From a virus, in IMG/VR virus record IMGVR_UViG_3300021400_000071, positions 1 through 42,847 of that record: a stretch of 42,847 nt of DNA; one strand, given 5' to 3'. Positions 6,555 to 40,700 of this stretch are shown one piece after another. The position numbers were made by a program, and so were the translations under genes. The first letter of the stretch is position 1; every line of letters begins with the position of its first letter. A model generated the notes under the pieces. The model worked only from the letters and a program-made list of their open reading frames with translations. It was not told the origin of the DNA and made no database searches.

Positions 6555-8099
6555 ATGATCAAACTAATCGTAAACAACCAGGAGCTGTCCATCGTCACGC
6601 AGAAGGTCGTGTCCGGCACGCACGACTATCTGACGGTCGAGGCGGATTTCAAGGGCAGCACCTGGGACGGCCTGCGGAAGTGGGTGCACTTCTCGATGGG
6701 CGAATTCAACTACATAATGCCGATGCTGGACGATGCCATTGCGGAAGACCAGCATCTCGATCTCACGGAGGGCACGTGGGAAGTATATGTGCACGGCAAC
6801 CTCGTTGAGGACGATGAGGTGACGGAGCGGATCACGACGGACATTAAATATCTGTACGTGGATGCGCCCCATGACGGGCATCCCTTTCCCCCTCTGACAC
6901 CGGACTATGAGGAGATGCTTGCCAACCAGGTGGCTGAGGCGAAGGAGATCTCTGCGCAGCTGCGGAAGGACGCTGAGGCTGGCCTGTTTGCCGATGGTGC
7001 TACCTTCTACCCTGACGTGGACGAGGACGGCATCATCTCCTGGACAAACGACAAGGGCCGGGAGAATCCTGAACCGAAAAATATCCGGGGCCCGCAGGGG
7101 CTGACCGGCGAGAGCGGTGTGTACATCGGCACGGAAGAGCCGTCGGATCCTGACATCGTGGTATGGATCGATCCAAATGCTGACAGCGGGACTGTGGTAT
7201 CCGGCATCTACTTCGGAGAAGACGAGCCGGAGAGTGACACCGTGACGGTATGGATAAAGCCAAATGCTTCGGTCGGCAAGATGATTGCGAGCCAGAGCAA
7301 GAGCGGCACCGGAGCTCCGGGCACCAGAGACACCTATTCCATCACCTTCACGGACGGATCTTCCATGGATATCATCGTCTACAACGGTGCTGACGGCGAA
7401 GGAGCCGGAGACATGGTAAAGGCAACCTACGATCCGACGAACAAGAACCAGGACATCTTTTCCTATGCTGACGGCATTAAAGGAAAGACCGACGTGACCG
7501 GCATTCTGAAGGGGGACGGAACGGATGTGTCAGCTGCCGTACCGGGAACCGACTATGTGGCTCCGGATGATCTGGCAAAAGTGGCAAAATCCGGAAGCTA
7601 TAACGATCTGAAAGATAAGCCTGCCATTCCAACCAACTACACGGTGGACGCTGCTCTCAGCAACACCAGCGAGAACCCTGTGCAGAACAAGGCTGTCAAG
7701 CAGGCAATAGACGGGATCAAAACAAGGCCGAACCCAAAAGCTCTTACCATAAATGTAACAGGCAATCAGCCTGTTGTTTATGACGGAACTGAGGCTAAGA
7801 CACTAAACATCGATACATCCAGCAGCAGCGGCGGCGTAACAGAGCTGATTGTACGGCAGATTGGATTTGCTTTTACGCAGGGAATCATTGCAGGCGGCCA
7901 GAGCTACAAGGAGATTGACGTTTCCTATAGTGGGTATACTCCCATTGCGGTTGCCGGGTTTAGACTTCCTGGATTTCTTGTCGGAGCAAATGGCTGTTAT
8001 ATTAACGGCAACACTTGCTATCTTAACGTGTTCAATTCCGGCACAACAGACGTCGGTGGCAACGGCTGGGTGAACGTGCTTTACAAAAAGAATTCATAA
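6555..8099 (+). CDS. Tail fibre / receptor-binding protein
   Basis: 514 aa. Short collagen-like GPQGLTGESG segment and repeated VWIDPNADSG / VWIKPNASVG motifs. Lower-GC C-terminal tip. Confidence 0.6.
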   Translation: MIKLIVNNQELSIVTQKVVSGTHDYLTVEADFKGSTWDGLRKWVHFSMGEFNYIMPMLDDAIAEDQHLDLTEGTWEVYVHGNLVEDDEVTERITTDIKYLYVDAPHDGHPFPPLTPDYEEMLANQVAEAKEISAQLRKDAEAGLFADGATFYPDVDEDGIISWTNDKGRENPEPKNIRGPQGLTGESGVYIGTEEPSDPDIVVWIDPNADSGTVVSGIYFGEDEPESDTVTVWIKPNASVGKMIASQSKSGTGAPGTRDTYSITFTDGSSMDIIVYNGADGEGAGDMVKATYDPTNKNQDIFSYADGIKGKTDVTGILKGDGTDVSAAVPGTDYVAPDDLAKVAKSGSYNDLKDKPAIPTNYTVDAALSNTSENPVQNKAVKQAIDGIKTRPNPKALTINVTGNQPVVYDGTEAKTLNIDTSSSSGGVTELIVRQIGFAFTQGIIAGGQSYKEIDVSYSGYTPIAVAGFRLPGFLVGANGCYINGNTCYLNVFNSGTTDVGGNGWVNVLYKKNS

Positions 8100-8111
8100 G
8101 GAGGCAGAAAC

Positions 8112-10160
8112 ATGGCGGATTTACTTGGAATTTTAAGAATTAAAGATAGTAACGGAAACTGGGTGAGTGTGCCCGGCCTGAAGGGCGACACCGGCGAACC
8201 GTTTAAGATCCTTGGGATCTTTGCGACAGCTGCCGACTTGGAAGCTGCAGTGACGGATCCCGGCGTGGGAGACGTATATCTTGTAGGCACCACAGGAGCC
8301 TACGACATCTATCTCTATCTGGCAGACGGCTGGCATAACACCGGACGGTATATGCCGAAGGGCGATCAGGGCGATCCGGCACCGCAGAGTGCTATCACTT
8401 CTGCAGTAGAGACATGGCTTGCTGCGAATGTGGATCCGGAGACTGGGTATGTGCTGGATAGGACGCTGAGTCTGGAGACTGCAGCAGCTCCGGCAGATCT
8501 GGTTGGAGTAATGAATAGCAAATTAAGCGATTTTGTTACACAAGAGACAGTAAACGGTGACCTTTGTATACTTGTCCCATATAACGCTTTGTCGGTAGCG
8601 TCTATTGAGTCGGTCGGCGACTCTATAACCAGAATAAAGTCGATTGGCAAGAATCTCTATCCTTACGGAAGAATTCCCCGTTATGAATATAGTTTTTATA
8701 TTTCATCCCTTGCTACCGCAAAATCCAAAGGAATACGATTGCCAAAAGGTTCATACACTCTGACTTTCACATCTTCTGTCGAAGCAAATAGGATAATGTT
8801 TAGAGCGTGGTCAGATGATGGTACTTTGCTCTCAGATGGTTCTGCATCATTTTCAGTATTATATGTTAACGAAACAAATTACCTAACAAGGGATTTTTAT
8901 TGGCAGACATATAGATATACTACTGCACAACGTGCTACTACGAATGTTATTGTTATAACAGTTAAGGACAACCCTGTGTGGTTCTTGTTCTGTGAAGATA
9001 GCGCAGCAGACTATGGCGATATATCAAATGCACAGTTAGAGGTGGGATATAATAATCCTACATCCTATGAAGCGTATTCTGAAACATCCTATGATGCCAC
9101 TGCAAAAAGTGTTTCCGTTGTCCCAAATGGGATGATTGTATTTACTGCATCAGACACAACTGATACCGCTTCTTCCGTTACATTTGGCTTTAAAAAAGAA
9201 ACTGATTTCACAAAGCTCGTTGCCAAACCATTTGATACAACAGAGAGTGGTTATGAGAAAGGCGATTATTGCATTCAAGAAGGAAAACTGTTTGAATGCA
9301 ACACTACACAAGAACAGGGCAGCGTTTTCAATCCCAATAATTGGACTGAAATTTGCGTAATGGACGAGATTTCGGATTTAAATGAAACGCAATCTCAACT
9401 TAAACGCAATACAAAGAATCCGTTCCTAATGCCTTTTATGCAAAACGGAAGACCCAAACTCGTGGCACATACAGGCTATAGCGCAAATGGAGAACCTGAG
9501 AACACAATTCCAGCATATATTGCAGCAGGTGAAGCTGGCTTCTGGGCGATTGAATCCGATGTGCAGAAAACAAGTGATGGGTATTTTGTGATGATGCACG
9601 ACACAACACTTGACAGAACAACAAACGGAACTGGATTGATTTCCGACAAAACTTTGGCTGAAATCAGAGAGTTGCATATCAAAGATCACGATGATTTACA
9701 AGTGCCTACACTGGAAGAATATCTTGCAATTTGCAAAATGTACGGATGTACACCTGTAATAGAAATTAAATCTACAGTCGCGGTGGAAGATTTTCCAAAT
9801 TTAATTGAAGCGGTAAGAAAATTTGGGCTTGAAAATAACTGTATGTTTAGCGGTTCGCCTTATTTAAACGTTGGTAATTTTCAGAGTTTAACTAATGCAC
9901 CATTAGCGCTTATTTATCAGGCTGCTGGTTCTTTGGACATTCCGTCAACTATTAATAATTTAATCGATGTTTACCATGTAAAAAATATTGGGGTTCATGT
10001 AGAAGGCATCACTACCATTTCAAAGGATTTAATTGCTAAACTTCACGAAAATAACATTTTTGCTTTCTGTTTCGTACTTGATACTTATGAAGCTGTTCAG
10101 CAAGCGTTTGAGTATGGTTATGATGCGGTGACAACAAATACTGTGGTTCTGCCGCAGTGA
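8112..10160 (+). CDS. Tail fibre with a C-terminal glycerophosphodiester phosphodiesterase (GDPD) domain
   Basis: 682 aa. N-terminus has GLKGDTGEPF and PKGDQGDP fibre-type segments. C-terminus reads LVAHTGYSANGEPENTIPAYIAAGEAGFWAIESDVQKTSDGYFVMMHDTTLDRTTNGTG, which fits the GDPD His/Glu/Asp/HD pattern. Confidence 0.75.
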   Translation: MADLLGILRIKDSNGNWVSVPGLKGDTGEPFKILGIFATAADLEAAVTDPGVGDVYLVGTTGAYDIYLYLADGWHNTGRYMPKGDQGDPAPQSAITSAVETWLAANVDPETGYVLDRTLSLETAAAPADLVGVMNSKLSDFVTQETVNGDLCILVPYNALSVASIESVGDSITRIKSIGKNLYPYGRIPRYEYSFYISSLATAKSKGIRLPKGSYTLTFTSSVEANRIMFRAWSDDGTLLSDGSASFSVLYVNETNYLTRDFYWQTYRYTTAQRATTNVIVITVKDNPVWFLFCEDSAADYGDISNAQLEVGYNNPTSYEAYSETSYDATAKSVSVVPNGMIVFTASDTTDTASSVTFGFKKETDFTKLVAKPFDTTESGYEKGDYCIQEGKLFECNTTQEQGSVFNPNNWTEICVMDEISDLNETQSQLKRNTKNPFLMPFMQNGRPKLVAHTGYSANGEPENTIPAYIAAGEAGFWAIESDVQKTSDGYFVMMHDTTLDRTTNGTGLISDKTLAEIRELHIKDHDDLQVPTLEEYLAICKMYGCTPVIEIKSTVAVEDFPNLIEAVRKFGLENNCMFSGSPYLNVGNFQSLTNAPLALIYQAAGSLDIPSTINNLIDVYHVKNIGVHVEGITTISKDLIAKLHENNIFAFCFVLDTYEAVQQAFEYGYDAVTTNTVVLPQ

Positions 10161-14157: not shown

Positions 14158-14598
14158 GTGGATTATCTTAATGATCTTTACGAAGCTCAGGAGCTCGTTG
14201 CCTGCAGCCTGGAAGAGGCGATCAAGAAAACGAAGCAACAGAGCGGCGGTAAGCTCATGACGACCAGCGATTCCGAGCACTTTAGGAACCTTATGAGCGC
14301 ATTCAAAAACTCTCAGGTTGCGATTGCAATGATTGAGGAAAAAGAAGGCGGAGAATCCTACGCCATGGACGATATAATAGAGCGTGGCAGAGACAGCCGC
14401 AGATCCTACCGCGCCTACGACGACGGAATGAACTACGGCATGAGTGGCAGACGCGGCCGCAATCCTTCCACCGGCCGGTACATGAGCCGCACCGGCGGAT
14501 ACTCCGGGCACGGGGATTACATGGAAATGGTTGAAGAAGCCATGCAGCGTGATCCCGAAGGCACTCGCAGAAAGCTTGAAATGCTGATGCAGCAGTGA
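14158..14598 (+). CDS. Hypothetical protein with an Arg/Gly/Tyr-rich centre
   Basis: GTG start after GAAAGGGGGAAAA. 146 aa. Contains RSYRAYDDGMNYGMSGRRGRNPSTGRYMSRTGGYSGHGD. Confidence 0.5.
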   Translation: MDYLNDLYEAQELVACSLEEAIKKTKQQSGGKLMTTSDSEHFRNLMSAFKNSQVAIAMIEEKEGGESYAMDDIIERGRDSRRSYRAYDDGMNYGMSGRRGRNPSTGRYMSRTGGYSGHGDYMEMVEEAMQRDPEGTRRKLEMLMQQ

Positions 14599-14616
14599 TC
14601 TGAACAATAAAAAGGA

Positions 14617-14645
14617 CAGCAGCAGGGAAACCTGCTGCTGTTTTT
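14617..14645. terminator. Bidirectional rho-independent terminator between the converging cargo operon and int
   Basis: CAGCAGCAGG-gaaa-CCTGCTGCTG, with an A-run upstream and a T5 run downstream. Confidence 0.8.
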
Positions 14646-14687: not shown

Positions 14688-15968
14688 TCAAAGGATTAAA
14701 AAAATCTGCCCGGATGCGTCGATCTCTATGCGTTTCACAGTGCGAGACCAGAATGCTTTCTTGTTTTCCATGGTGAGGGTGGAGTACATCTTCACGGCGT
14801 CGGAGATGGAGCTCAGATCTATCGGGATCTGCTGGGGCTCCCATGCGTACAGCTCAGACTCCAGGGCACGGTAATCCTTCTCATAGATCTCCTTACTGAT
14901 CAGATCATCGAGGTACAGATCCTTCAGCTTGTCCATCTTCTTCTGGATCCTGGCCTTGTCCTTCTTCGGCTTGGTTTCGGCAGCGATCTCAGCATTCCGA
15001 TCCTTAGCAGCTGACTCCAGATTCTCCAGCAGGAAGGATTCAATCTTATGCTCGGGAAGGTGCTTTCGGTTCCGGCAGCGGTATGACCCAAACTCATCAT
15101 GGAGATAGCAGGAGTAGTAAGCTGTGCCCTTCACCCGGCCTGCCTTTACCCGGCCACCGCATTCCTTGCAGTAAATGATTGATGTGAAGAGGAACACACT
15201 TCCGGTTCTCCCTGCATTACGCTGGGAGCGTGTCTGAAGGATCTCCTGGGCCCGCTGAAACTGGTCATGGCCGATCAGCTCTATGTATCGCTTGTTGTGC
15301 AGCAGCCATCGAATCGTGGTAAAGCTGCGATTGATCTTGTACTTATCATGGAGCAGATCACGGCAGACAGCACAGGATCTGTAGTCGATGAATGTCTGGA
15401 ACAGATCCTCGATGATCGGCAGCTGCTCCGGATCCGGCACGACCTTCTTATCTTCCAGCTTGTATCCGATCAGGACAGAATCATTCAGCCATTCGCCCTT
15501 TGCCCGCTTGGCCTCCTGGACAAAGCGGATCCTCTCAGCCGTCCGGTCAGCCTCATCCTCTGCCACACTTAGCATGATGTTCACCTTGAAACGCCCGGAT
15601 GCCGTCACCGTCTCATAGTCTTCTAATGTCGCCTGCCATGCGACATTATGCTTCTCCAGGATCGGCTGCACCTGATGGTAGGCAGCCACATTCCTGAACC
15701 ATCGGTCAAGCTTGATAAACAGGATCACGTCCACCCGGTCAGCCTCGACGGCCTCCAGCAGGCTCAGAAGGGCAGGGCGCTTCTTGTATGGCTTCCGGGC
15801 GGAGATCCCTTCATCCACATACTCCCCGACGATCTGATAGCCGTGCTCTTTGGCATAGGCCCGGATGGAATCCACCTGGGCCCCGATGCTGTAGCCGTGC
15901 CTGGCCTGTTCTTCGGTGCTTGCTAAACGCGAGCATAAAGAGCTGCTCTCTTCATCTCGCCTCATCAT
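14688..15968 (-). CDS. int: Large serine recombinase (integrase); N-terminus appears frameshifted
   Basis: Resolvase-type STEEQARHGYSIGAQ, then a recombinase domain, a Cys zinc-ribbon (YCKECGG...YYSCY...YRCRN) and a coiled coil. The canonical MKRAALYARV start lies in another frame (15955..15923). Confidence 0.85.
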   Translation of the reverse strand: MMRRDEESSSLCSRLASTEEQARHGYSIGAQVDSIRAYAKEHGYQIVGEYVDEGISARKPYKKRPALLSLLEAVEADRVDVILFIKLDRWFRNVAAYHQVQPILEKHNVAWQATLEDYETVTASGRFKVNIMLSVAEDEADRTAERIRFVQEAKRAKGEWLNDSVLIGYKLEDKKVVPDPEQLPIIEDLFQTFIDYRSCAVCRDLLHDKYKINRSFTTIRWLLHNKRYIELIGHDQFQRAQEILQTRSQRNAGRTGSVFLFTSIIYCKECGGRVKAGRVKGTAYYSCYLHDEFGSYRCRNRKHLPEHKIESFLLENLESAAKDRNAEIAAETKPKKDKARIQKKMDKLKDLYLDDLISKEIYEKDYRALESELYAWEPQQIPIDLSSISDAVKMYSTLTMENKKAFWSRTVKRIEIDASGQIFLIL

Positions 15969-15982
15969 CCCCTTTCTTTATC

Positions 15983-16053
15983 TTCGTCGATAATTATTGT
16001 ATTCACAGTTGGAATATTTTATTCCAATCGGAATAAAATGATTCTTCGACGAA
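15983..16053. promoter_or_regulatory. Nested dyad-symmetric element (candidate int regulatory site or attP)
   Basis: Inner TTGGAATA-ttt-TATTCCAA at 16009-16027. Outer TTCGTCGA (15983-15990) pairs with TCGACGAA (16046-16053). All arms share a centre at 16018. A third GGAATA lies at 16030-16035. Confidence 0.4.
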
Positions 16054-16070
16054 TATTTTACATCTATTCT

Positions 16071-16382
16071 TCATCTATCTCGCCCTGGATTTGAGATAAA
16101 CAGAAAAAAGCCAGCGGAAGCACCAATGATCCCGGATATGATAGCAGCAATGCGCTGCACACCAGCATAGTCAAAATCAGCAAGGCTTTTAAATGCCACC
16201 CCAAAACCTATTATTCCTGCGATAAAAAGAAGATTTAATGTGTTCTGGCTGAATGGTTTTGCTTTACGATAGTAATCCATCAGATAAGAACCACCTGCTA
16301 TATACACAACAGCAGCAAAAACCTTAAAGCCAAAAGCGGAACCAATTAGAATGTCAAATAGAATTCTGAATGAATCAACCAT
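16071..16382 (-). CDS. Small multi-TM membrane protein co-transcribed with the repressor
   Basis: Start MVDSFRILFD after GAGAGGG. ATGGTTGA overlap with the repressor stop. Three hydrophobic segments. Confidence 0.6.
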   Translation of the reverse strand: MVDSFRILFDILIGSAFGFKVFAAVVYIAGGSYLMDYYRKAKPFSQNTLNLLFIAGIIGFGVAFKSLADFDYAGVQRIAAIISGIIGASAGFFLFISNPGRDR

Positions 16383-16830
16383 TTCGCCCTCTCTTTTCAT
16401 CGGACAGTTTTGCCCGGATATCATCGGCCTGTTCTTTAAAGGCTGGCGGCTCACGACCCTGGAGTGCTGCTATGATGCGAATATACTGAGAAAGCTGCTC
16501 ATCGGTGGCATCCCTTATCATAAAAAGAATAGTGCGGATCAGCCTATTCTGAAGATATTCTACGCTGTCCATAAACAGCTCCATAATCTCAGGATTGTCC
16601 TCTGGAAGAAGAGCCTGTTCTACATCTTCAATGTCATCGTTCACAAAATAGTCAGGTGAGACATTGAACACTTCCGAAAGCTTAGCGATCTTATCCCTCC
16701 CCATATTGGAGATAAGGCCGGTCTCCCATTTTCTGACAGTGCTTTTCCCAACACCAACCTTTTTGCCTAATTCTTCTAATGTGTAACCTCGGTCGGTTCT
16801 TAGCGCCTTGATTTTCTCACCGGCATTCAT
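16375..16830 (-). CDS. CI-like XRE-family HTH repressor
   Basis: MNAGEKIKALRTDRGYTLEELGKKVGVGKSTVRKWETG is a classic HTH_3 motif. Divergent from the early operon. Confidence 0.85.
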   Translation of the reverse strand: MNAGEKIKALRTDRGYTLEELGKKVGVGKSTVRKWETGLISNMGRDKIAKLSEVFNVSPDYFVNDDIEDVEQALLPEDNPEIMELFMDSVEYLQNRLIRTILFMIRDATDEQLSQYIRIIAALQGREPPAFKEQADDIRAKLSDEKRGRNG

Positions 16831-16922: not shown

Positions 16923-16951
16923 TTGACATATAGGTGAAACAGTCGTATTAT
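16923..16951 (+). promoter_or_regulatory. Early rightward sigma-A-type promoter
   Basis: TTGACA (16923-16928), 17 nt, TATTAT (16946-16951). Confidence 0.75.
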
Positions 16952-16955
16952 GGTA

Positions 16956-16971
16956 GTGTCTTTTAAGACAC
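16956..16971. promoter_or_regulatory. Operator O1 (16-bp palindrome GTGTCTTTTAAGACAC)
   Basis: Perfect dyad starting 5 nt after the -10 element. Confidence 0.65.
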
Positions 16972-16991
16972 TTTTGAAGGGAGGTGAATCA

Positions 16992-17186
16992 ATGAATCAG
17001 CAAAAGCTCTATGAACGAATGAAGCAGAGGGGTGTGTCGAAGAAGGACGTCTATCAGAGACTGAAGATTTCCAGGTCTGCTTTCTACCGGAAGTGTACTG
17101 GAAAGTCTGAATTTAAGCTTGAAGAAATACAGACTCTGATGGATATGCTTGGGCTTAAAACGGCAAACGGTATTTTTTTTGAATGA
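16992..17186 (+). CDS. Cro-like small HTH regulator
   Basis: RBS GGGAGGTG. 64 aa. VSKKDVYQRLKISRSAFYRKCTG HTH. The track start at 16950 lies inside the -10 element. Confidence 0.65.
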   Translation: MNQQKLYERMKQRGVSKKDVYQRLKISRSAFYRKCTGKSEFKLEEIQTLMDMLGLKTANGIFFE

Positions 17187-21048: not shown

Positions 21049-21805
21049 ACTGATTAAAGAATCCATCTGCACGAGCGAGGATCTTGAATGCCTATCGCCA
21101 ATGGCTGAAATCCTTTTCTATCGTCTGATAGTAAATGCAGACGACTACGGATGCTTTCACGGAAACGAGAGTATAGTAAAAAGCAAATGCTTTCCATTGA
21201 AATCAGATGATATCAAATGTGATCAGATGAAATCATGGTTGGATGAGCTTGATAACGTGGGATTGATCACAAGATACATCGGAACAGACGGCAGAAGATA
21301 CATAAAGCTCACAAAATGGGAGAAACACCAGCAGGTAAGGGCAAAAAAGCGCAAATTCCCTGAGCCTGAGTCCGTGTGCGAACATCCGATATCAAATGAT
21401 ATCAATAGCGAGCAGATGAAATCAGATGATAGCAAATGTCCCCGTAATCCAATCCAATCCAATCCAGAATCCAATCCGAATACGAATCCAAATATTGAAA
21501 ACATTCGCAAGCAAACTCCAACACCAATGAAAGGTGCTTTTGATGAATTCTGGGACACATACCCGAAGAAGACCGGAGATATCCGTCTGACCTATCAGGA
21601 ATATCTTTTTGCCATTGAGGAGATTAAACCGGAAGTGCTGCTGGAAGCTCTGAGGAAGCAGGTGGCAGCTGCTGATGAGGACGAATTGAAATACTTCCAC
21701 AGTGCTGATAAGTGGTTGCGGAACCGGGAATGGAAAAAGCCTGTCACCGCCAGCAAGAAGAAGCCGGTGCGGAAGTTTGAACCAACGGTATTTGAGGATA
21801 TCTGA
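21038..21805 (+). CDS. Putative replication initiator / replisome organiser
   Basis: Sits in the replication slot. N-terminus has a winged-helix-like pattern (AEILFYRLIVNADDYGCFHG). The ORF carries iteron-like DNA repeats. Confidence 0.5.
   Translation: MPNRLIKESICTSEDLECLSPMAEILFYRLIVNADDYGCFHGNESIVKSKCFPLKSDDIKCDQMKSWLDELDNVGLITRYIGTDGRRYIKLTKWEKHQQVRAKKRKFPEPESVCEHPISNDINSEQMKSDDSKCPRNPIQSNPESNPNTNPNIENIRKQTPTPMKGAFDEFWDTYPKKTGDIRLTYQEYLFAIEEIKPEVLLEALRKQVAAADEDELKYFHSADKWLRNREWKKPVTASKKKPVRKFEPTVFEDI
21199..21490. repeat. Iteron-like repeat cluster (candidate origin)
   Basis: GAAATCAGATGATA[T/G]CAAATGT at 21199-21220 and 21418-21439. CAGATGAAATCA at 21224-21235 and 21413-21424. (AATCC)x4 at 21446-21465, with further AATCC copies to 21490. 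Confidence 0.5.
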
Positions 21806-31768: not shown

Positions 31769-34700
31769 ATGGCAAACAAGACAAGCGCATTCAGAGAATC
31801 TGCGAAGAAAATAGGCATTTACCAGCCGAGATCAGTGGATGAAGCGAATGAGATGCTGAATGAGCTGAATACACGCTCACAAGGCATAACAAATTATCTG
31901 AATAGCGATAAAGAATCGTCCGTACAGGATCGGATTAAGTACCAGGATCAGATAACAGGCGCGAGGAGACAGCTTGATACTATATCGAAGCAGTATGGAA
32001 CCGATCTATCTGAGAACCAGAAATGGTACGATGAAGCAAATTCTGTCATGCAGGACAGGAAAAACGCCTACGTCCAGAGAGTTATGCAGACACAGGCGGA
32101 GAATAACTGGGGGCAGCCGGACAACCGGACAACTCTGCAGAAGGTAACGGACAAGCTGCTGGGCGTAGACCGCACCAAGGTGACCGGCGGAAAGACTGAC
32201 TGGGGAAAGCTGGCCGAAGGCGCAGCCGTCAAAGGAGCCAATCAGGCGAATGCCGGATTCTGGAGCGGCGTCGGGATCTTCAACGATATCGGGAAGAAGA
32301 TCACCAACAGCAAGGTGGGCAACTGGCTTTTCGGAGATCTGGCCGACGGGGCGAATGCGATAGCAACCACAACCATCAACGGGGCCATCGACACGATCAA
32401 CTCCATTTTTGGAACGAACTATGCCGGGATTAAGAACGGGCAGAGCGCTCTGGACTTCCTTGTTTCCGATGCACAGGCAGGCAAAGCAAATGCTGAAGCC
32501 AAGTATGAAAAGAATGCAAACACCAGCAGGGCCGCACAGATCATTGACCAGTTTGGCACTTCCACCGTGGCCGCTATCCCGATGGCCATCGAGGCGGCTA
32601 TCCTGGCACCGACGCAGGCAATGCAGGCGGCACAGGTAACTACCTCCGGGCTGTCCTACTTCTCCGGGATGCAGAATGCAAGAGGAGTAGAAGCTATCGG
32701 CATGATGGGAAGAGAAGGGCTGAACAAGCTGTTCAGGAACCCGCAGTTCTGGACTTCCTACCTGCAGGCTGCCGGTGACGGATATGAGAGTGCGAAAGAA
32801 GACGGCATGAACCAGGACGATGCTGCCGTCTATGCTCTTACCAACGGCTTTTTCAATGCCATGGTCGAAGTCGGCGGTGCAGATGAGGCACTGGGCGGCA
32901 TTCAGAACCTTCCGATGCGGCTGAGACAGGCAGCGGAGAGCGGTAACAAATCTGCCGTCGTGAACTGGTTTAAGGACTCCGTGCTCGGTGAAGCATGGGA
33001 AGAAGTGCAGCAGGGTGCAATCGAACGCGGGACTAAGTCCTTTTTCGGGCAGGACGTGCCGATCTTTTCTCTGGATCCGACGGATAACCGGGCAATCATC
33101 AACCCGTACACAGCCGGACAGGAATTCCTCGGCGGCGCTGTCGTCGGCGGCGTACTCGGAGGCGGGCAGGTAGCAGCGAATAGCGCAGTGCAGAGCGTTT
33201 CTGACAGCAGAACCTTCAATGGCGATGCCAGTGCTCTGATAAAGGCAGCAAAGAACTCGGCACAGGAAGCCGATCAGGCCAGCATTGCGCAGATTGAAAG
33301 CGCTATGGCAGCACGTAAGGGCAGAACCATAACGATGGGCGAGGCACGCACGCTGCAGGAGATCGCCTCCCGCACGGGCAACATGCACGCCTACGTCCAG
33401 AACATTCTGCAGGCAGAGAATCAGCAGCGGGCCGATCAGCAGCGTGAGGCAACCCAGCAGAGCCGGGTACGCAGGTACCTGGAACGGGTGCGTGCCGGTG
33501 AGGTAGACCAGACTGGAACAGCAGACACCAAGGGCGCTACCATCCAGTACGAAGGGCGGCAGGCCAAGGTGGACTTTGTGCGTGACGGAGATCAGAACCG
33601 GGTGCGGCTGACCTTTGATGACGGAACGGAGCGCACGGTGAGCTACCAGGAGGCAGCTGATGCGGGCCTCGACGAGAACGTGAGGAACCTGATGGTGGCA
33701 CTCTCCGCTATCGGGCCCAATGCACCGGCAGCCTACAGCGTGTATGAGAGCGATCAGGAAGTGGGCAGATACGCAGCGGCGATGGATGAGGCCATCAATC
33801 TCTATGCGGCACAGGGACAGGATGTCCGAAAGGCCGCAGCCGCTGCAAGGGAAAGCAATTCCCCGGCCATGATCACCTATCTGACAGACGCACAGCTGGA
33901 GCTTGCCCAGAGCCTGGGCAGCAAGATCTATGAGCAGAAGCAGACGCAGGTGAAGGAGGCCGGTGCCAAGCTTGCCGAGATCCGGCAGGCGGCACAGCAG
34001 GCCATGAGCGCACAGGATGTGACGGCGACCGAAGGACTGGCAGCAGTGAATGCAACCCTCACGGATGCACGGCAGCACCTGAAGAACGTACAGCAGGCAT
34101 ACAACGACACCATGGAATATCTCGACGAGATGGCCGCCAACGGGCAGGAAGGAACCGAGGCATATCAGAATGCCCTTGAGCAGGCAAACGCGCTCAGAGA
34201 CGATCTGGACGGCACCCAGAAGGTAATTGAGGCACTGGAGGACGAACGGAAGAAACTGCAGGCCCGGCAGCCGATCAAGCGCAAGCAGGGCACGGTGAGC
34301 TTTGAGGGCGGCACCATCAACGGCGAGAAGGTGAACGGTGTTGACCGGAGCAAGCTTACCAGACAGCAGAAGAACGTGGTGGCCATGGTGGAAGCACTGG
34401 CCGACGCCGTGAATGTGGACTATGTCTTCTTTGACGGAGATGCCAAGGGCAACCAGGGCGCCTACGTGCAGGGCGGCACGGTGTACATCAACGTGAATGC
34501 CGGTATGGCAGCCAACAAGGCACTGGCAGCGGCCACACTGAGCCATGAGCTGACGCATTATATGCAGGAGTACGCACCGGAAGAGTATGAGCAGCTGAAG
34601 CAGTTCATCATCTCCAATGTGCTGCAGAAGGGCGAACTCGACCGGCTGGTGCAGCAGCAGCTCCGTCTGGAGCCGAACCTCAGCTATGACCAGGCACTGG

Positions 34701-37700
34701 ACGAAGTGGTAGCAAACGCCTGCCAAACCATGCTGCAGGACAGCAAGGCTATTGCCAAGCTGGCACGGCAGAACATGACGCTGGCGGAGAAGATTGCTGA
34801 CTACATCGAGGATATAACAGCGAGACTCAAGGCGGCCTTTGAGGACGTCAACTACAAGGATAACCTGCCGCTGTACAATGCCGTCAAGGCCATGGAAGAT
34901 CAGCTGGATGAGATGCAGAGGCTGTGGGATGCCGGTATTGAGGCGGCGACGGAGAACTATAATGCTCAAAATACGGTAAGAAATGCTCGCGAACAGGCAG
35001 AAAATGCTCAGGAAACGCAAAATGTGCCCGAAAATGCGGAAACAATGCCCGCTGCAGCTCAGAGAGCGGATACGCAGGAAGAAAGCAATACCCAAACACA
35101 GTTCCAGATGTGGGACACCGTTGAAGAAACCGACAGGCTGATTGCTGTGCACAACAAGAGCGTAAGCGGCCTGCGTAGAATGCTGCAGCGGCATGGCGTG
35201 CCTTTCCCGTCTATCGCAATTAAGAAGGCCGGAACACCTCATGAAGGATTCGGCGACGTATCAATCGTGTTTCCTCGCTCTACCATCGACCCGGAGGTAA
35301 ACCGGCAGAACAGGCTGTACAGCAACGACGCATGGACACCGACAGAACCTATTGAGGAGTACGACGTCGGAGATATGTACCGGTATCATAAGAAATTCCG
35401 GAAGATGATTGGGGAAGATGTGTTCAGCGGCCTCAAAGGATCTTCTTATCTGGAAGAGAGCGATGTGTCCAGAAAGCTTCAGTACAACAGAGGCGACATA
35501 TTTGCGGCAGTGAAAGATATCAGTGCCGTGAAATATGCCTATCTGAAGAGCATTGGACAGGAACCGCAAATATCTGGAAAGGCGGGAGATTTGTTCACAG
35601 GAGGCAACTTTTCAAACGAAGAAGTGCTTGCTGTGTTTGATGCTTTCGGTACTGGCGGCATGGAGGCGATGGAAGAAAACGACGATGCAACACGCCAGAA
35701 GATTCGGGATGCACTCAATGAATGGTTTGCCGAGAAGTATGACGGAACAAAGCTTGAAAAGAAAGCTCGTGAAAGTAAGCCATACGACAACAGAGGAGTA
35801 TGGCCGGATGATTTCAAGCGAGCATGGGAAAACTACAAGCAGAACAACTACTCTGTAAAGGTCGTTCCGGATTACGATGCACTTGACAGAAGTCTAAGAA
35901 ACAATTCAGAAGTTCTTAATGATCCTAGATACAAGGAATGGATAGAGGAACAGTTCTCCGATCTTATCAAAGACAAGGGAATTCCGAACGGAAAGGACTA
36001 TTACACACCTTCCGGCAATGTTAGAAGCTTTAAAGCCCGGCATGTGCCTGCCACACTGGAAAACATCGTTGCTCAGATGCAGAAAGAACAGGAACGCGGC
36101 GTCGGCGTTATGGGCGTCAACCTTAGAGGGGCTGCCACAAAAGCATACCGGAACGTGGAAGAGATGCGTGCCGATAGTGGGAGACTCTTAGGAACGCACG
36201 TTTCAGATGATGTTTATGACAGCTATATGAAAGGGTTTCAGGACAGGCTGTATGAACTGACACAGAGAGCTGCCAATGGTAGTGAACGGTGGGAGGTGAT
36301 GGATAGCGCTCAAGAAATTCTTCTGGAAACTCTCAGAGATTCTACCAGCAAGCAGAATATGGACACCAGGCTGAGGCGAGAGGCACAGTGGATTAATTAC
36401 AGCAAAGAGCTGGCAAATGATCTCTGGGCGCTCCGAAATGACGTACAGAACATGCCTGCCCCGTATTTTGAAGCAAAGCCGCGTAGAATCGTATACCCGG
36501 AGGAAGCGCTTGCATATATCCTTCCGGACAATGCGGACCAGGACGTGGTGGATCAGCTCAACCAGATAGGCTACAATGTACTGACCTACAAAGCCGGAGA
36601 TGAGGCAGACCGTCTGGAAAAGCTGAACAGTGTGGAAAAAGCCAAGTTCCAGGCATGGGACGAGCAGATGGCTCCGGAGATCCGGCAGCGGATCGAGGAT
36701 GCTGATGCACTGGAAGCCCGCGTGCGTGATTACTTCCAGAGCGTGCCGGAGGACAGCAATTATTATCTCAGTGATGACGAGATCAGCGAGATGATGGAGC
36801 TTGACCGGTATGCAGTGGATGGAGATATCAGAGGCGCTGAGCGGATCGTTGAGGATCTGTCTGAACTGTCCAAGAATCTATACGGCGACGAGAAGACACA
36901 AGCCTACGAGCTGATGGACGCACTGATTCAGCACCTGTCCGTGATGCAGCAGGATAACTGGACGGAGATGCGGATTGCTCAGAACAAGACCTTTGCAGAG
37001 TGGTACGGCAAGAAGCATCCGAGCCTGTACTATCCTGGCTATGAGATGGGCAAGCTGAATGTGGACAAGGAAGTAAACTATCTCCGGGAGCTGATCGACA
37101 GCGGAACACTGACGGCAGAGGACGAGGCAGAAGCGCAGCGGCTGTATGATGCGATGCGTAGCAGCCCATATTCCACCTGGTATCAGAAATGGGATAACAC
37201 CGGCGATGACACTTCAAGCGAGGATGCAGGCAGGAGAATGGCCTATGCCATGATTCAGGCCGAGAACAACGCACTGAAGGATGCAGTCAATGCCCTGAAT
37301 GAACTGACCAACAAGCAGAACACCACCATTGCCAGACTGGAAAAGGCCCTGAAGCTGACCAAGACACCGGAAGTCCGGCAGGGCGATGCAAACCGGCTGG
37401 CAAGGCAGCTGGTGAAGGACCACAGCAGCACGGCTGATGCGTCCCGCGTGGCGGCTGAGCTGAAAGCCATGGGCGATTACATCCTGCAGAACAAGAAGAT
37501 CGATGCGGACACCGTGAAGCAGAGAGCCAGAGCGATTGCGGCGGAGCTCGTCGAGAATGCGGAAGTGGTCGATGACCTTGGTGGAGAGCTTGCCACATAC
37601 CGTGGTATCGCGGATGATATCAGAGGCAAGAAGCTGACGATAGACGAGGACTTCATCGGAGAGTTGGGAACTGCAGACGGATACGACGCATTCCGGAAGG

Positions 37701-40700
37701 CAAACTTCGGCAACTTCACACTGGCGAAACGCGGCACCGGAGAATCTGCCGGACGTGATGGATATACCACCGTCGGCGGCTTCTACCAGACGCTGCAGCA
37801 GGCATGGGGTGAGGCATACTTCCCGAATGTGGCCAACGAGGGCGAACAGATCCAGGTGATCGCAGACATGTTCCAGCGGGCGAAGGGCATCACCGTGAAC
37901 CCAAACGAGGACTACATGGGCGAGGCCACCGAGGAGCTTGCCAACCGGATTGCTTTTGATGTGATGGATGGCATCATGAGGCCGACCCCTCCGACGCAGG
38001 CAGACCGGCAGAAAGCCAGACTCGACGAGGCAAGGCAGGAAACCATGACTGCAGAACGGGAAGCTGAGAGAGCCGGAGAACGTGCCGCAGCTACCATCTA
38101 CGATCTGACCACCGCACTGGATTCGGCACAGAGCCGCCAGAAGACACTGATGGAATCCATCCGTGAGCTGGAGAGACAGGGTGAGCTGAGCGAGAAGGAA
38201 GCACAGCGCATGGCCGAGACCATCTACGATCTGAGCATTGCACTGGACAATGCCGAGAGCCGCTACAAAACGCTGAGAGCATCCGCCAGAGAGCGCTACA
38301 GCCAGCTGAGGGAAGAAGGCCGGGCCCGTGCAACGGAAGCCGCAATGCGAGAGCGGGAGAAAGCAAATGAAAGGATCTCCGCTCTGAAAAACTACTACCA
38401 TGATCTGGCAGACCGGGCAAGGGAACGCCGGAACGAGGCAGCCGGATCCACCAAGTACCGGAAGAAGATCCAGCAGCAGGTGAAGAAGCTGTCTGACTGG
38501 TTGATGAAAAACAGCGATAAGGAACATGTGCCGGAAGCCATCAAAGCGCCTCTGCTTGAATTCCTGACGGCAATCGACTTCACATCCAAGCGTGCACTGC
38601 GCGGCGGCGAGCAGACCCAAAATGACGTCAAATTCGGGGCACGGCTGCAGAAGCTACAGCAGATGCTGCAGAATCAGCAGCGGTACATCGACGGCGACGG
38701 AAACGTGCAGCAGGATCTGGGCGGCTACATTGACATCGGGCCGGACATGCAGCAGGTGCTGCAGGACATGGCACAGCGTGTGACCGAAGCCATGGAGACC
38801 GGCGAGACCTACACCATCAACACCATGAGTGCAGCTGAGCTGAAGGATCTGAGCAATCTGATCGCCACACTCACAGCCGGCATCCGGAACATGAACAGCT
38901 TCATGGCGAATGCCCGGTATGAGAGCGTGAGAGAGGCGGCAGCACAGGACATTGAGACCATGCAGAAGCTGGGCAAGGCCAGAGACAGCGACAGCAGCAT
39001 GATCGCAAAGTTCCTGAAATGGAAGGACGCCACACCGTACTATGCGATGAAGCGATTCGGACAGGGCGGCAGAAGCATCTTTGACGGGCTGACACGCGGC
39101 TGGGAGAAACTGGCTCAGCATGCACAGCAGATCATCAGCTTCACGGAGAAAGCCTACACCGACAAGGAAGTGAACGCCTGGAAGAAGGAGATGCACAGCT
39201 TCACACTGGAGGACGGCAGTGAGATCCGCATGACCACAGCACAGATCATGGAGCTGGCCATGCTGCTGAAGAGACCGCAGGCCGTGCAGCACATCACGAA
39301 GGGCGGCATCCGGATCGGCAACATCGAGACCACCGCGAATGGCCAGAAGCGCACCATCACAGACACGACGCACTATCATCTGACAGCTGACGATATCGTG
39401 AATGTCCTGGACACGCTGACTGACCGGCAGCGGGAAGTGGCCAACACCCTGCAGAAGTACATGGCGGAACAGGGAGCCAAATGGGGCAATGAGATCACCA
39501 TGCGGCGCTTCGGCTATGAATTCTACACAGAGGGCGAGAACTACTACCCGATCCGGACGGACGATAACACCAGACCGATGGCTGACACGGACGCGCAGCA
39601 GAACAGTATGTTCCGCCTGCTGAACCTGAGCAGCAGCAAGAGCCTGAACCCGAAAGCCAGCAACGCACTGGTGGTCAATGACATATTCGACACATTTGCC
39701 GACCACATGGCCGATCAGGCAAAGCTGAACGCGCTGGGCCTGCCGATCCTCGACGCGATCAAATGGTTCAACTACAGAGAGCGGATTGACCTGGGTGACG
39801 GAGCCTACAACACCGTGACCATGCAGGCAGCCATGGAACAGGCCTACGGCGAGCAGGCGAAGCGGTACTTCCGGACGCTGATGAAGGACATCAACGGCGT
39901 GACCGAGAGCGGCGACCGAGGCACGGATCTGGCGAGCCGGATGATGAGCAATTACAAGATCGCATCCGTCGGTGCCAACCTGCGTGTGGCGATGCTGCAG
40001 CCGACAGCCTATGTGAGGGCACAGACCGTGATCTCTCCGAGAAACCTGATCCGGGCATTCGCCTACAAGAACGGGATCAAGGAGGCCATGGAGCACTCCG
40101 GAACGGCAATCTGGAAGAGCCTGGGCTATTACGACACCAACATTAGCCGGAGCATGCGGCAGCAGATTCAGCACAACGAGACCATCCGTGACAAGCTGGT
40201 GGAGAAATCCATGAAGATGGCAGAGCACGGAGACCAGGTAACGTGGGGCCGCCTCTGGATTGCCTGCAAGCTACAGGCACAGGACATGAATCCCGGCATC
40301 ACCGGCGACGATCTGATGCAGAAGACGGCAGATCTCTTCCGTGAAGTGGTTTACAGCAGCCAGGTGATGGACAGCACGCTGACCAGATCCGAGCTGATGC
40401 GCAGCCACAGCTTCTGGGATAAGAACCTCACGGCATTCATGGCAGAGCCGACGCTGAGCTACAACATTATGATGGACGCCTACATTACCTATGAGAACGA
40501 TGTGCGGGCAAACGGCAGGCAGGGTGCATGGCAGCGCAATTCGGAGACGCTGCGGAGAGCATTCACGGTGTACATGTCCAGCGCTGTGGTATCCGCCATC
40601 GCTGAGAGCATTGCGGACGCGATCCGGGACGATGACGATGACGAGACCGCAATCGATAAGTTCCTGCAGGCATTCCTTGGTGAGGACAGCATCCTCGACG

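Follow-up and report, generated by a model that had tools for sequence, protein, structure and literature searches.

The serine integrase gene of a complete rumen phage genome (the window; 42,847 nt, IMG/VR record IMGVR_UViG_3300021400_000071) is interrupted by a 5-nt coding gap between the Val codon and the catalytic Ser codon of its N-terminal motif. Comparison with related integrases showed that this gap is real, conserved and recurrent. The five extra bases are genuine, are conserved across many related phages and evolve under selection; the enzyme is therefore probably produced by ribosomes that hop across them. The reading that we favor, with a probability of roughly 55%, is a deliberately maintained gap that ribosomes cross by programmed translational bypass over a short distance (a "stop-hop") to give the enzyme.

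The integrase gene and its coding gap

The gene was read on the minus strand of the window. A Shine-Dalgarno-like GAGG (15963-15960), within a 7-nt AGGCGAG stretch, is followed by cgag and thus lies 4 nt 5' of a leader ATG (15955-15953), from which a leader ORF in frame A (15926..15955) continues through AAG AGA GCA GCT CTT TAT GCT CGC to GTT (15928-15926). The encoded MKRAALYARV contains the beta-1 strand and Y-x-R-V, and is the same N-terminus as that of intact relatives. TAG (15925-15923) directly follows the GTT, and after CA the codons AGC (15920-15918), ACC, GAA, GAA and CAG are read in a different frame. These bases match exactly the initial annotation, which had reported the sequence from GAGG to GTT TAG and had placed the frame break precisely between the Val and catalytic Ser codons, where it was also found here. 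With TAGCA between YARV and the serine, the DNA as written has no contiguous Y-x-R-x-S motif, which would arise only on skipping of the 5 nt. The Shine-Dalgarno, leader ORF, 5-nt gap and resume codons together make up a 5' module (GAAAGGGG … AGCAC) at 15916..15976 of the minus strand.

The lesion was defined by alignment to intact relatives, in which CGN GTN is followed by AGC/TCN ACN. This alignment supported a 5-nt insertion of TAGCA (15925-15921) and eliminated the 2-nt insertion that had been offered as an alternative to it. The AGCAAGCA repeat described earlier next to the insertion is not conserved, as relatives carry AGCG-AGCA, AGCC-AGCA or AGCC-TCCT.

The integrase body (14688..15920, minus strand) consists of 410 codons and a TGA with 0 internal stops, and encodes a Resolvase catalytic domain and a Zn_ribbon_recom domain (PF13408, 1.3e-09). 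The earlier call of a serine integrase was borne out by a Resolvase match (PF00239, E 7e-26) covering residues 17-160 of the annotated 426-aa ORF and profile positions 8-145, such that the profile begins only at position 8, at the AGC of the catalytic serine (15918..15920), and runs onward from there. PF07508 was not detected in the window protein by profile search and is on record for relatives such as P0012 and P0020. As had been noticed previously, the 426-aa ORF (14688..15968, minus strand) is open solely by way of an upstream ATGATG (15968-15963) in the second frame (frame B), a possible body-frame start that yields the annotated 426/425-aa product and reads MMRRDEESSSLCSRLASTEEQ.

A bidirectional terminator-like hairpin (14612..14645) separates the integrase from a convergent gene at 14158-14598. 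Upstream of the integrase on the same strand is a cI-like HTH repressor gene of the lysogeny module (16375..16830, minus strand; HTH_3, 2.8e-14), with another minus-strand ORF (16071-16454) between the two, and a Cro-like gene with a divergent promoter is located at 16923-17186. No second recombinase was found in the window genome, the integrase being the sole recombinase of a complete phage genome with a cI/Cro-type module. No tRNA or suppressor gene was detected in the window.

Recurrence of the gap and selection on its flanks

Six alleles from ruminant gut samples, each assembled independently, contain an insert of TAGCA or TAGCG (the latter in the L004 gap variant). At the level of sequencing runs the evidence consists of assembled contigs, and the gap was found in the window, in one ENA assembly and in Logan contigs of five further runs; one gene among these gap alleles is only 77% identical in protein. 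None of the listed runs with the sequence is recorded as an RNA dataset. In other ruminant gut runs, some contigs have the gap allele and others the intact one. GTY-TAG(C/T)C was additionally identified at the same codon boundary in four further integrase lineages, represented by L027 and L033 (MRVALYARV; GTC TAGCC AGC), L038 (MRVSLYTRV; GTT TAGCA AGC), L039 (GTC TAGTC TCC, in which the landing triplet GTC is the same as the take-off codon) and L040 (GTC TAGCC TCC). The codon before the gap is GTT or GTC in every gap allele available as DNA, and TAG lies directly 3' of it in every such allele, a universality that is partly ascertainment given that L027 and L038-L040 were retrieved by patterns that required TAG.

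Protein clusters extended this picture. The frame-B N-termini of 18 out of 247 clusters all read Leu-(Ala/Val)-Ser, which requires T at gap position 1, G at position 3 and C or T at position 4 and leaves position 5 to vary; gap lineages known from protein only are P0144, P0149, P0198, P0206, P0178/208/218/228, P0153/159/170, P0183 and P0240. Nearly all N-terminal breaks among the 247 clusters, whose N-termini were surveyed, are this single lesion.

A sequencing or assembly indel, one of the explanations first put forward, is refuted by the same or nearly the same inserts in independent assemblies, samples and diverged genes. The broader set of nucleic-acid-level explanations, in which replication slippage, RNA editing or polymerase realignment corrects the frame or the gap is an artefact, was considered extremely improbable: independent assemblers, samples and years agree on the sequence, with substitutions inside the insert, and no homopolymer or tandem repeat able to slip is present at the gap. 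Intact and gap alleles also differ at many neighboring silent sites, and intact alleles are therefore not simple revertants. No silent or spare copy of the leader and no inverted repeat suited to a DNA switch was found in the window genome. Of the ideas in the initial annotation, a slippage-based switch came closest in spirit; its DNA-level form fails for want of a repeat tract or a silent spare copy, and the evidence instead favors an event in translation, ribosome bypass.

In searches beyond these datasets, the cultured-phage database gave zero nucleotide matches to the gene and, by tblastn with P0228, only matches of ≤35% identity. Exact module patterns returned nothing from IMG/VR, JGI metagenomes or GTDB genomes, and a YARV-specific degenerate pattern returned nothing from IMG/VR. 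The degenerate pattern gave 7 matches in JGI metagenomes, 6 of which were chance matches lacking recombinase context. In IMG/VR, the L027, P0208 and P0206 integrases had either no relatives or relatives with an intact gene. No integrated prophage with a gap allele was recovered by a protein scan of GTDB contigs (≤25% identity only), and 401 sampled Clostridia genomes yielded no protein match at 1e-70 and no pattern match. No publication describing a 5-nt integrase gap was found.

Substitution rates were compared across the bodies of gap alleles. Close pairs of gap alleles gave dS values of 0.22-0.35 with dN of approximately 0.01 (dN/dS 0.02-0.05), the window and L004 bodies gave a dS of 1.36 and dN/dS of 0.13, and L027 and L033 gave a dS of 0.30 and dN/dS of 0.16. 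Judged by these ratios (0.02-0.16 overall) and by the absence of any other lesion, the bodies of gap alleles are functional and under strong purifying selection. The marks of a decaying pseudogene, relaxed selection and a build-up of lesions, were absent by the same ratios and by zero additional stops or frameshifts in 11 loci. The earlier suggestion of a dead or weakened integrase is unlikely as simple decay, considering the strong selection on the body, the lack of more lesions, the conservation of the gap and its presence in several lineages.

The 5' module is near-identical in the six alleles, the bodies of which differ at 61% of third codon positions. Only 1/10 of the leader third positions varies, and this sole variable base is a silent GCN position. 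Upstream genes vary from allele to allele among gap alleles, and the 7-nt AGGCGAG stretch is restricted to gap alleles. The tree shows a patchy gap state, with at least 10 changes, and interleaves gap alleles with intact ones, the two kinds coexisting at >95% protein identity. The window-type module looks to have been spread recently by recombination.

These observations would also fit a true null, a "lysogeny-off" patch that is gained and lost by short-patch recombination between related phages, with the bodies kept intact by repeated passage through intact alleles. A recombining off-allele would give both the patchy tree and the spread of the module, would allow gap and intact alleles to be so closely related, and would leave the module much less diverse than its flanks, as after a recent spread; the gap alleles seen were on circular, phage-sized contigs, with none seen integrated. 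However, random nulls would be expected to be scattered along the gene, and the 247-cluster survey (N-termini, and the bodies of a few loci) found one lesion. The conservation of gap bases 1, 3 and 4 with a variable base 5, the low dN/dS (0.02-0.16) of pairs made up only of gap alleles, and a staphylococcal counterpart in phiIPLA7, a phage that has been reported to be temperate (PMC3505474), count against a null allele as well. This explanation was judged unlikely.

Leader codons that change between lineages (CTT/TTG/TTA, TAT/TAC, CGC/CGT and GTT/GTC) do so silently in frame A, and the same changes produce C/R, S/P and R/C/G swaps in frame B. Differences between leaders are thus mostly silent in the MKRAALYARV frame and mostly residue-changing in the "rescuing" frame, and on this pattern of substitution the leader is shown to evolve under selection in its own frame (frame A).

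The leader pattern bears on whether translation instead begins in frame B at ATGATG, with the resulting MMRRDEESSSLCSRLASTEEQ… protein acting as the integrase, either working or weakened on purpose, and the MKRAALYARV ORF serving only as an overlapping decoy. An ATG or GTG occupies the ATGATG position in 6/6 window-type alleles, immediately 3' of an AAAGGGG element; frame-B starts are present in L039, L040 and the Staphylococcus epidermidis phage PH15 too, and gene callers pick this start. The Shine-Dalgarno, however, abuts the frame-B ATG with a spacing of 0-3 nt, and the frame-B peptide is variable (S/R/C within the window type, in addition to the swaps between lineages) while frame A stays YxRV. 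The frame-B product is without the normal beta-1 strand and Tyr and has its Arg displaced, which would leave the catalytic Arg misplaced. Furthermore, this start is absent from L027, L033 and L038, where no body-frame ATG, GTG or TTG is located between the upstream stop and the serine; in these three loci a catalytic enzyme could be made only via entry from the leader frame. Initiation in frame B was accordingly regarded as very unlikely.

The proposed stop-hop

In the favored reading, ribosomes would initiate at the ATG at 15955 and make MKRAALYARV. While UAG, which is decoded slowly, occupies the A site, the peptidyl-tRNA-Val in the P site would release from the GUU (15926..15928), the proposed take-off codon; the mRNA would slip by 5 nt, and the tRNA would re-pair at the triplet that begins with the G of the UAG. 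This landing triplet would be GCA in the window (15923-15921, within the gap at 15921..15925) and GUC in L039 and PH15, with a general form of G(U/C)N. Decoding would then restart at AGC, the proposed resume codon, and the product would be a canonical YARVSTEEQ… integrase at a reduced level. Most ribosomes presumably terminate after the 10-residue leader, in which case the gap may throttle the supply of integrase and, through it, lysogeny. The hop, how efficient it is and what it would regulate are inferences.

Bacterial ribosomes have been established to hop at stop codons to a codon that matches the P-site tRNA (PMC5009743; PMC6815119). TAG supplies the G that opens a G-Y-N landing triplet, which TAA or TGA could not. 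The match between take-off and landing is perfect in L039 (GUC UA GUC) and in PH15 and a second S. epidermidis phage, phiIPLA7 (GUC AG GUC AGU), and is only G-C-N in the window (GTT…GCA), L004, L027, L038 and L040. For the window GCA against the Val anticodon, base 1 pairs, base 3 pairs only if a U34 tRNA-Val reads GUU, and C opposes A in the middle, a mismatch. Neither a take-off stem-loop nor an internal Shine-Dalgarno of the T4 gene 60 kind was evident at the gap sites, and folds of four sites scored no better than shuffles (z −1.6 to +0.2), giving no sign of stimulatory mRNA structure. A hairpin across the leader occurs in the gap-less staphylococcal phage StB20 too and is not specific to gap alleles.

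A different programmed frameshift, +2 or −1 at or near the Val, would decode the gap and add residues to give YARV-A-STEEQ or YARV-LA-STEEQ. The gap always encodes Leu-(Ala/Val) in the body frame, as a frameshift with a decoded gap would predict, and in the window, L027 and L038 the sequence CGC-GU offers tRNA-Arg a CGU two bases further on with which to re-pair. This CGC-to-CGU option is missing in L039 and L040 (CGT GT) and in PH15, the Val tRNA is unable to re-pair at −1, +1 or +2, and no slippery heptamer (X XXY YYZ) is present at the gap site. R-x-S spacing was kept in 219/219 intact relatives surveyed, so an insertion of residues there would be unprecedented. Such a frameshift was considered improbable.

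Three further candidates were rejected. An attP within the 5' end of the gene was dismissed because intact L009 and L010 have the same upstream phage sequence. Reinitiation after the leader was dismissed because no start codon occurs near or after the TAG ahead of the serine. TAG reassignment was dismissed because readthrough would not lead into the body frame and table 11 gives normal ORFs elsewhere.

More tentatively, and at somewhat less than even odds, we propose that a class of temperate-phage serine integrases, in phages of ruminant-gut Firmicutes and independently in staphylococcal phages, is expressed via a natural short hop. The rule for this class would be a motif Val codon GUY, two bases completing a stop or rare codon, a G(U/C)N landing triplet and the catalytic Ser codon. 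If this is true, hop efficiency could be set by release-factor or tRNA status, through which host physiology would bear on integrase supply and on the decision to lysogenize, and the gap/gap-less polymorphism could be maintained by short-patch recombination. A recurrent 5-nt stop-hop would represent a rare way of reading a gene, not described for integrases, and would provide many natural take-off/landing pairs in a gene with an easy functional read-out. Annotations at present give gap genes a false N-terminus or record them as truncated or as pseudogenes, which can mislead both phage lifestyle prediction and the mining of serine integrases for genome engineering.

Comparison with known systems

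To our knowledge, natural cases in which translational bypassing is used are very few, namely T4 gene 60 and its relatives, yeast mitochondrial inserts and the Hau3 candidate. T4 gene 60 is likewise a phage gene interrupted by non-coding bases, with a UAG directly after the take-off codon (PMC5009743). There the peptidyl-tRNA is retained and pairs again further downstream, after which the codon that follows is decoded (PMC5009743), steps that are only proposed for the integrase. The gene 60 gap is 50 nt and that of the integrase is 5 nt, and the integrase differs in having an imperfect landing match in most alleles, in a nascent chain of only 10 residues, and in the lack of any identified internal Shine-Dalgarno, take-off stem-loop or long nascent-peptide signal.

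Stop-hops and hungry-codon hops in E. coli reporters resemble the proposed event in being short hops of a P-site tRNA with a stop or slow codon in the A site (PMC5009743; PMC6815119). Those hops are synthetic or incidental and low-level, whereas natural integrase genes have conserved this site. A review of the subject knew of no case in which stop-hopping is used in nature, and held that a regulatory use would be of special interest (PMC5009743). The prfB (RF2) site CUU UGA C is comparable as a "shifty stop" at which the A-site stop promotes re-pairing of the P-site tRNA, with a built-in regulatory throttle, but its shift is +1 onto an overlapping codon and is driven by an upstream Shine-Dalgarno, neither of which is a feature of the integrase.

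The case described in PMC10732093 also involves short frame-breaking inserts that open with a slow codon, contiguous relatives without the insert, and a proposed link to the lysis-lysogeny choice. It concerns another gene, has an insert of 10 nt that opens with a rare sense codon where the integrase has a stop, and occurs only a few times, whereas the integrase gap is found in several lineages.

The S. epidermidis phage integrases of PH15 and phiIPLA7 differ from the ruminant-gut alleles in that their insert is a perfect GTCAG duplication before the catalytic serine, such that take-off and landing are both GUC. In PH15 the A-site codon is Arg AGG, which is rare in staphylococci, in place of a stop, and host and phage family differ as well. 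They are likewise serine integrases with 5 nt at the same boundary after the motif Val. As in the window, PH15 has a start further upstream in the second frame, and a closely related intact gene exists, in this case that of StB20, which lacks the 5 nt.

The integrase locus in the window genome

The minus strand was re-read and the coordinates of the initial annotation were all correct: the sequence runs GAGG-cgag-ATG AAG AGA GCA GCT CTT TAT GCT CGC GTT TAG CA AGC ACC GAA GAA CAG. The leader frame (frame A) yields MKRAALYARV and then stops. The integrase body lies in a second frame (frame B), from the AGC catalytic serine codon (15920-15918) to a TGA at 14688; the Pfam match to the resolvase domain begins only at this serine, and a recombinase zinc ribbon was also matched. 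Intact relatives have the N-terminus MKRAALYARVSTEEQ and contiguous DNA (…CGN GTN AGC/TCN ACN…), so that the window carries an extra TAGCA (15925-15921). Of the two insertion lengths originally proposed, 5 nt was thus retained and 2 nt dropped.

The window is a complete viral record (circular assembly, 42,847 bp, 107-nt end overlap) encoding a P22-like portal, a large terminase and a cI/Cro-type switch. It holds a single recombinase gene (one resolvase-domain match) and no tyrosine integrase. The cI-like repressor is encoded upstream of this gene in the same orientation, and a simple scan of the window revealed no separate promoter for the integrase. Among 40 greedily chosen ORFs, stop codons were TGA (22), TAA (16) and TAG (2, one probably spurious); the leader TAG is the rarest stop in this genome, since TAG ends at most 2 of ~40 ORFs.

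Other features of the window were also recorded. GC content dips at 8001-10160 (0.42 versus ~0.55 elsewhere) under an ORF of 682 aa that carries a glycerophosphodiester phosphodiesterase domain at its C-terminus; this may be a tail or receptor-degrading module gained by horizontal transfer. One 3,520-aa ORF (31769-42331, plus strand) occupies a quarter of the genome; its sole Pfam match is a PBECR5 nuclease-like domain (residues 1110-1333), and the product resembles the "polyvalent proteins" of phages. Phased repeats of ~10 nt at 21179-21454, in two clusters (GATATCAAATG / GAAATCAGATG) with 189 nt between them, look iteron-like and may mark a replication origin.

Distribution of the gap and selection on the gene body

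An independent ENA assembly shows the identical sequence, as does a Logan contig that is probably from the source sample. Four related loci (L013, L021, L022 and L023) are distinct alleles with the same insertion, and a fifth (L004) carries TAGCG, one base off TAGCA. Given this recurrence in distinct alleles of other samples, the sequencing or assembly indel first suggested is contradicted, and any artefact or correction at the nucleic-acid level is extremely unlikely.

At the protein level L004 and the window share only 77% identity, and the L004 body looks like intact genes from a different sub-lineage. Genes immediately upstream also vary across gap contigs, the slot between repressor and integrase being filled differently in each relative (by an HNH endonuclease gene, a KTSC-domain gene or small ORFs; L021 2373-3017, L023 2458-2973, L004 5814-6017, window 16071-16454). 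In L021 and L004 the TGA of the upstream ORF shares bases with the ATG of the leader (ATGA), suggesting that translation is coupled into the leader frame. Intact alleles (P0121, P0122 and P0127) share the 90%-identity protein cluster of the gap allele, and two loci (L009, L010) have an intact allele in the same upstream phage context. Contigs from other ruminant gut runs carried the gap or the intact form, and one goat-gut run contained both forms together with another gap lineage. A palindromic, AT-rich stretch lies upstream of the integrase (16009-16036, minus strand; TTATTCC-GATT-GGAATAA, then AATATTCCAA) and is kept in L009, L010, L013 and L022. It marks a 5' boundary past which the gap alleles diverge from the intact ones, and might terminate the preceding gene or serve as an operator or att-related site.

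Selection between gap alleles was estimated from the serine codon onward using the Nei-Gojobori method. Close gap alleles gave dS of 0.22-0.35 and dN of ~0.01 (dN/dS 0.02-0.05), window versus L004 gave dS of 1.36 (dN/dS 0.13), and two loci of another lineage, L027 and L033, gave dS of 0.30 and dN of 0.047 (dN/dS 0.16). With these ratios, and no further stop or frameshift in any gap allele, simple decay of a dead integrase, as first suggested, is unlikely; by its substitution pattern the gene appears alive.

A degenerate scan of JGI metagenomes for YARV-TAGCN-AGCAC returned one real match, L027, a different serine recombinase (ATG CGA GTG GCT TTG TAC GCT CGC GTC TAGCC AGC ACG GAC GAG CAA); L033, on a 44-kb contig, is 92% identical to it and has the same gap. 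Two looser IMG/VR scans added three gap loci on contigs of ~40 kb: L038 (MRVSLYTRV; GTT TAGCA AGC), L039 (MRVCLYARV; GTC TAGTC TCC) and L040 (GTC TAGCC TCC). A protein search with L027, independent of any DNA pattern, surveyed 247 clusters, and 18 had frame-B-type N-termini (such as …GYIRSRLASTEEQ, MFIRPRLASTTEQ, …FIRSCLASSDEQ, …TLCPGLVSSEEQ) or were truncated calls of known gap genes. The frame-B-type peptides fit TAY GCN CGN GTN T.G YN read one base out of frame. On the tree of bodies the gap state requires at least 10 changes.

Other odd N-termini occur in this integrase family: P0153, P0159, P0170 (MPVFVST…), P0240 (MPVFST…) and P0183 (…CTLASRASTEDQ). Back-translation of MPVFVST gives YARV followed by a gap of 4 nt (Y+GTN), the final three of which form another Val codon; from protein sequence, P0240 and P0183 imply breaks of 1 nt and roughly 7 nt.

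A recombining "lysogeny-off" allele is unlikely but a serious rival. It fits the patchiness of the gap and the fact that intact alleles coexist with it, yet does not explain why the gap sequence is conserved, why the N-terminus lacks breaks of other kinds, why gap alleles show selection among themselves, or the staphylococcal case.

Leader frame and a putative stop-hop

Leader differences between lineages (CTT/TTG/TTA, TAT/TAC, CGC/CGT, GTT/GTC) are silent in frame A, always spelling L-Y-x-R-V, and in frame B are C/R, S/P and R/C/G replacements. The sole variable leader base of the window type (GCA/GCC/GCT) is likewise synonymous in frame A; read in frame B, it yields S, R or C. The leader is therefore translated in frame A. 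In the window, an upstream ATGATG at 15968 also opens frame B, but a frame-B start as the source of integrase is very unlikely: the leader differences mean that it cannot be a general solution, and no ATG, GTG or TTG is available in the body's frame between the upstream stop and the serine in L027, L033 or L038, which could therefore make catalytic enzyme only via entry from the leader frame.

Within the window-type module, one of the 10 third positions in frame A is variable, versus 61% in the body (P = 0.0013), and none of the 10 in frame B (P = 8e-5), a uniformity beyond what coding constraint alone explains. Because silent sites vary between lineages, this was read as recent spread by recombination, not a nucleotide-level signal.

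The gap sequence is constrained: bases 1, 3 and 4 are T, G and C or T, as deduced from the Leu-(Ala/Val) that is invariant in frame B, and base 5 is variable. Base 2 is A in every DNA case, giving TAG, a count partly biased as L027 and L038-L040 were found by a TAG-requiring pattern. A triplet that begins with this TAG's G is displaced by exactly 5 nt from the Val codon and abuts the serine codon. It is GUC in L039 and in phage PH15, and GCN in the others; a GTC take-off codon is paired with G-N-C at landing, and GTT with GCA or GCG, the match in the window being imperfect. Judged from sequence, this arrangement has the geometry of a stop-hop, a short translational bypass. Peptidyl-tRNA-Val would depart GUY with UAG waiting in the A site, re-pair 5 nt further on, either completely or at the first and third positions, and decoding would restart at serine, giving the canonical YARVS enzyme. 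Such geometry would explain TAG rather than TAA or TGA, the pyrimidine at gap position 4 (opposite anticodon A35) and the insert length of 5 nt. Frameshift decoding part of the gap is quite unlikely: some lineages offer a CGC-to-CGU +2 route, but L039, L040 and PH15 do not, and other shifts have no conserved re-pairing option and no slippery heptamer.

No stimulatory structure was found among predicted folds. A hairpin predicted in each lineage joins the region of the start codon to the Y-x-R codons immediately 5' of the take-off codon (window 15929-15959; L027 4321-4346; PH15 about 9815-9850; GCGAG…CUCGC in window and L027), with energies no better than shuffles, and the gap-less StB20 has the same hairpin. 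No lysogen of the window's phage family with the gap allele was found in GTDB contigs and 401 sampled Clostridia genomes. As to purpose, we infer that hopping at low yield would hold integrase levels down, and that supply could depend on termination efficiency at UAG.

Comparison with known recoding systems

The integrases of staphylococcal phages PH15 and phiIPLA7 read CGT GTC AG GTC AGT ACA, and their relative StB20 reads CGT GTC AGT. Here take-off and landing codons would both be GUC, and the A site would hold AGG, an arginine codon rare in staphylococci, not a stop. The PH15 5' end was matched by 21 phage records, each over a record stretch as long as the matched query. phiIPLA7 has been described as temperate (PMC3505474).

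Full-text searches for literature linking integrases with bypassing found nothing, and integrases and recombinases go unmentioned in the consulted portions of a 2016 recoding review, which state natural stop-hopping to be unknown (PMC5009743). The stop-codon form of integrase gap recoding would now be present in several ruminant-gut phage lineages, and the staphylococcal form would use AGG. Hopping at stop codons is a known behaviour of bacterial ribosomes (PMC5009743; PMC6815119), and T4 gene 60 has the same arrangement of take-off codon and UAG as the integrase gap (PMC5009743). The closest published analogue is the Hau3 terminase gene, with candidate bypass of 10-nt UUA-headed inserts (PMC10732093).
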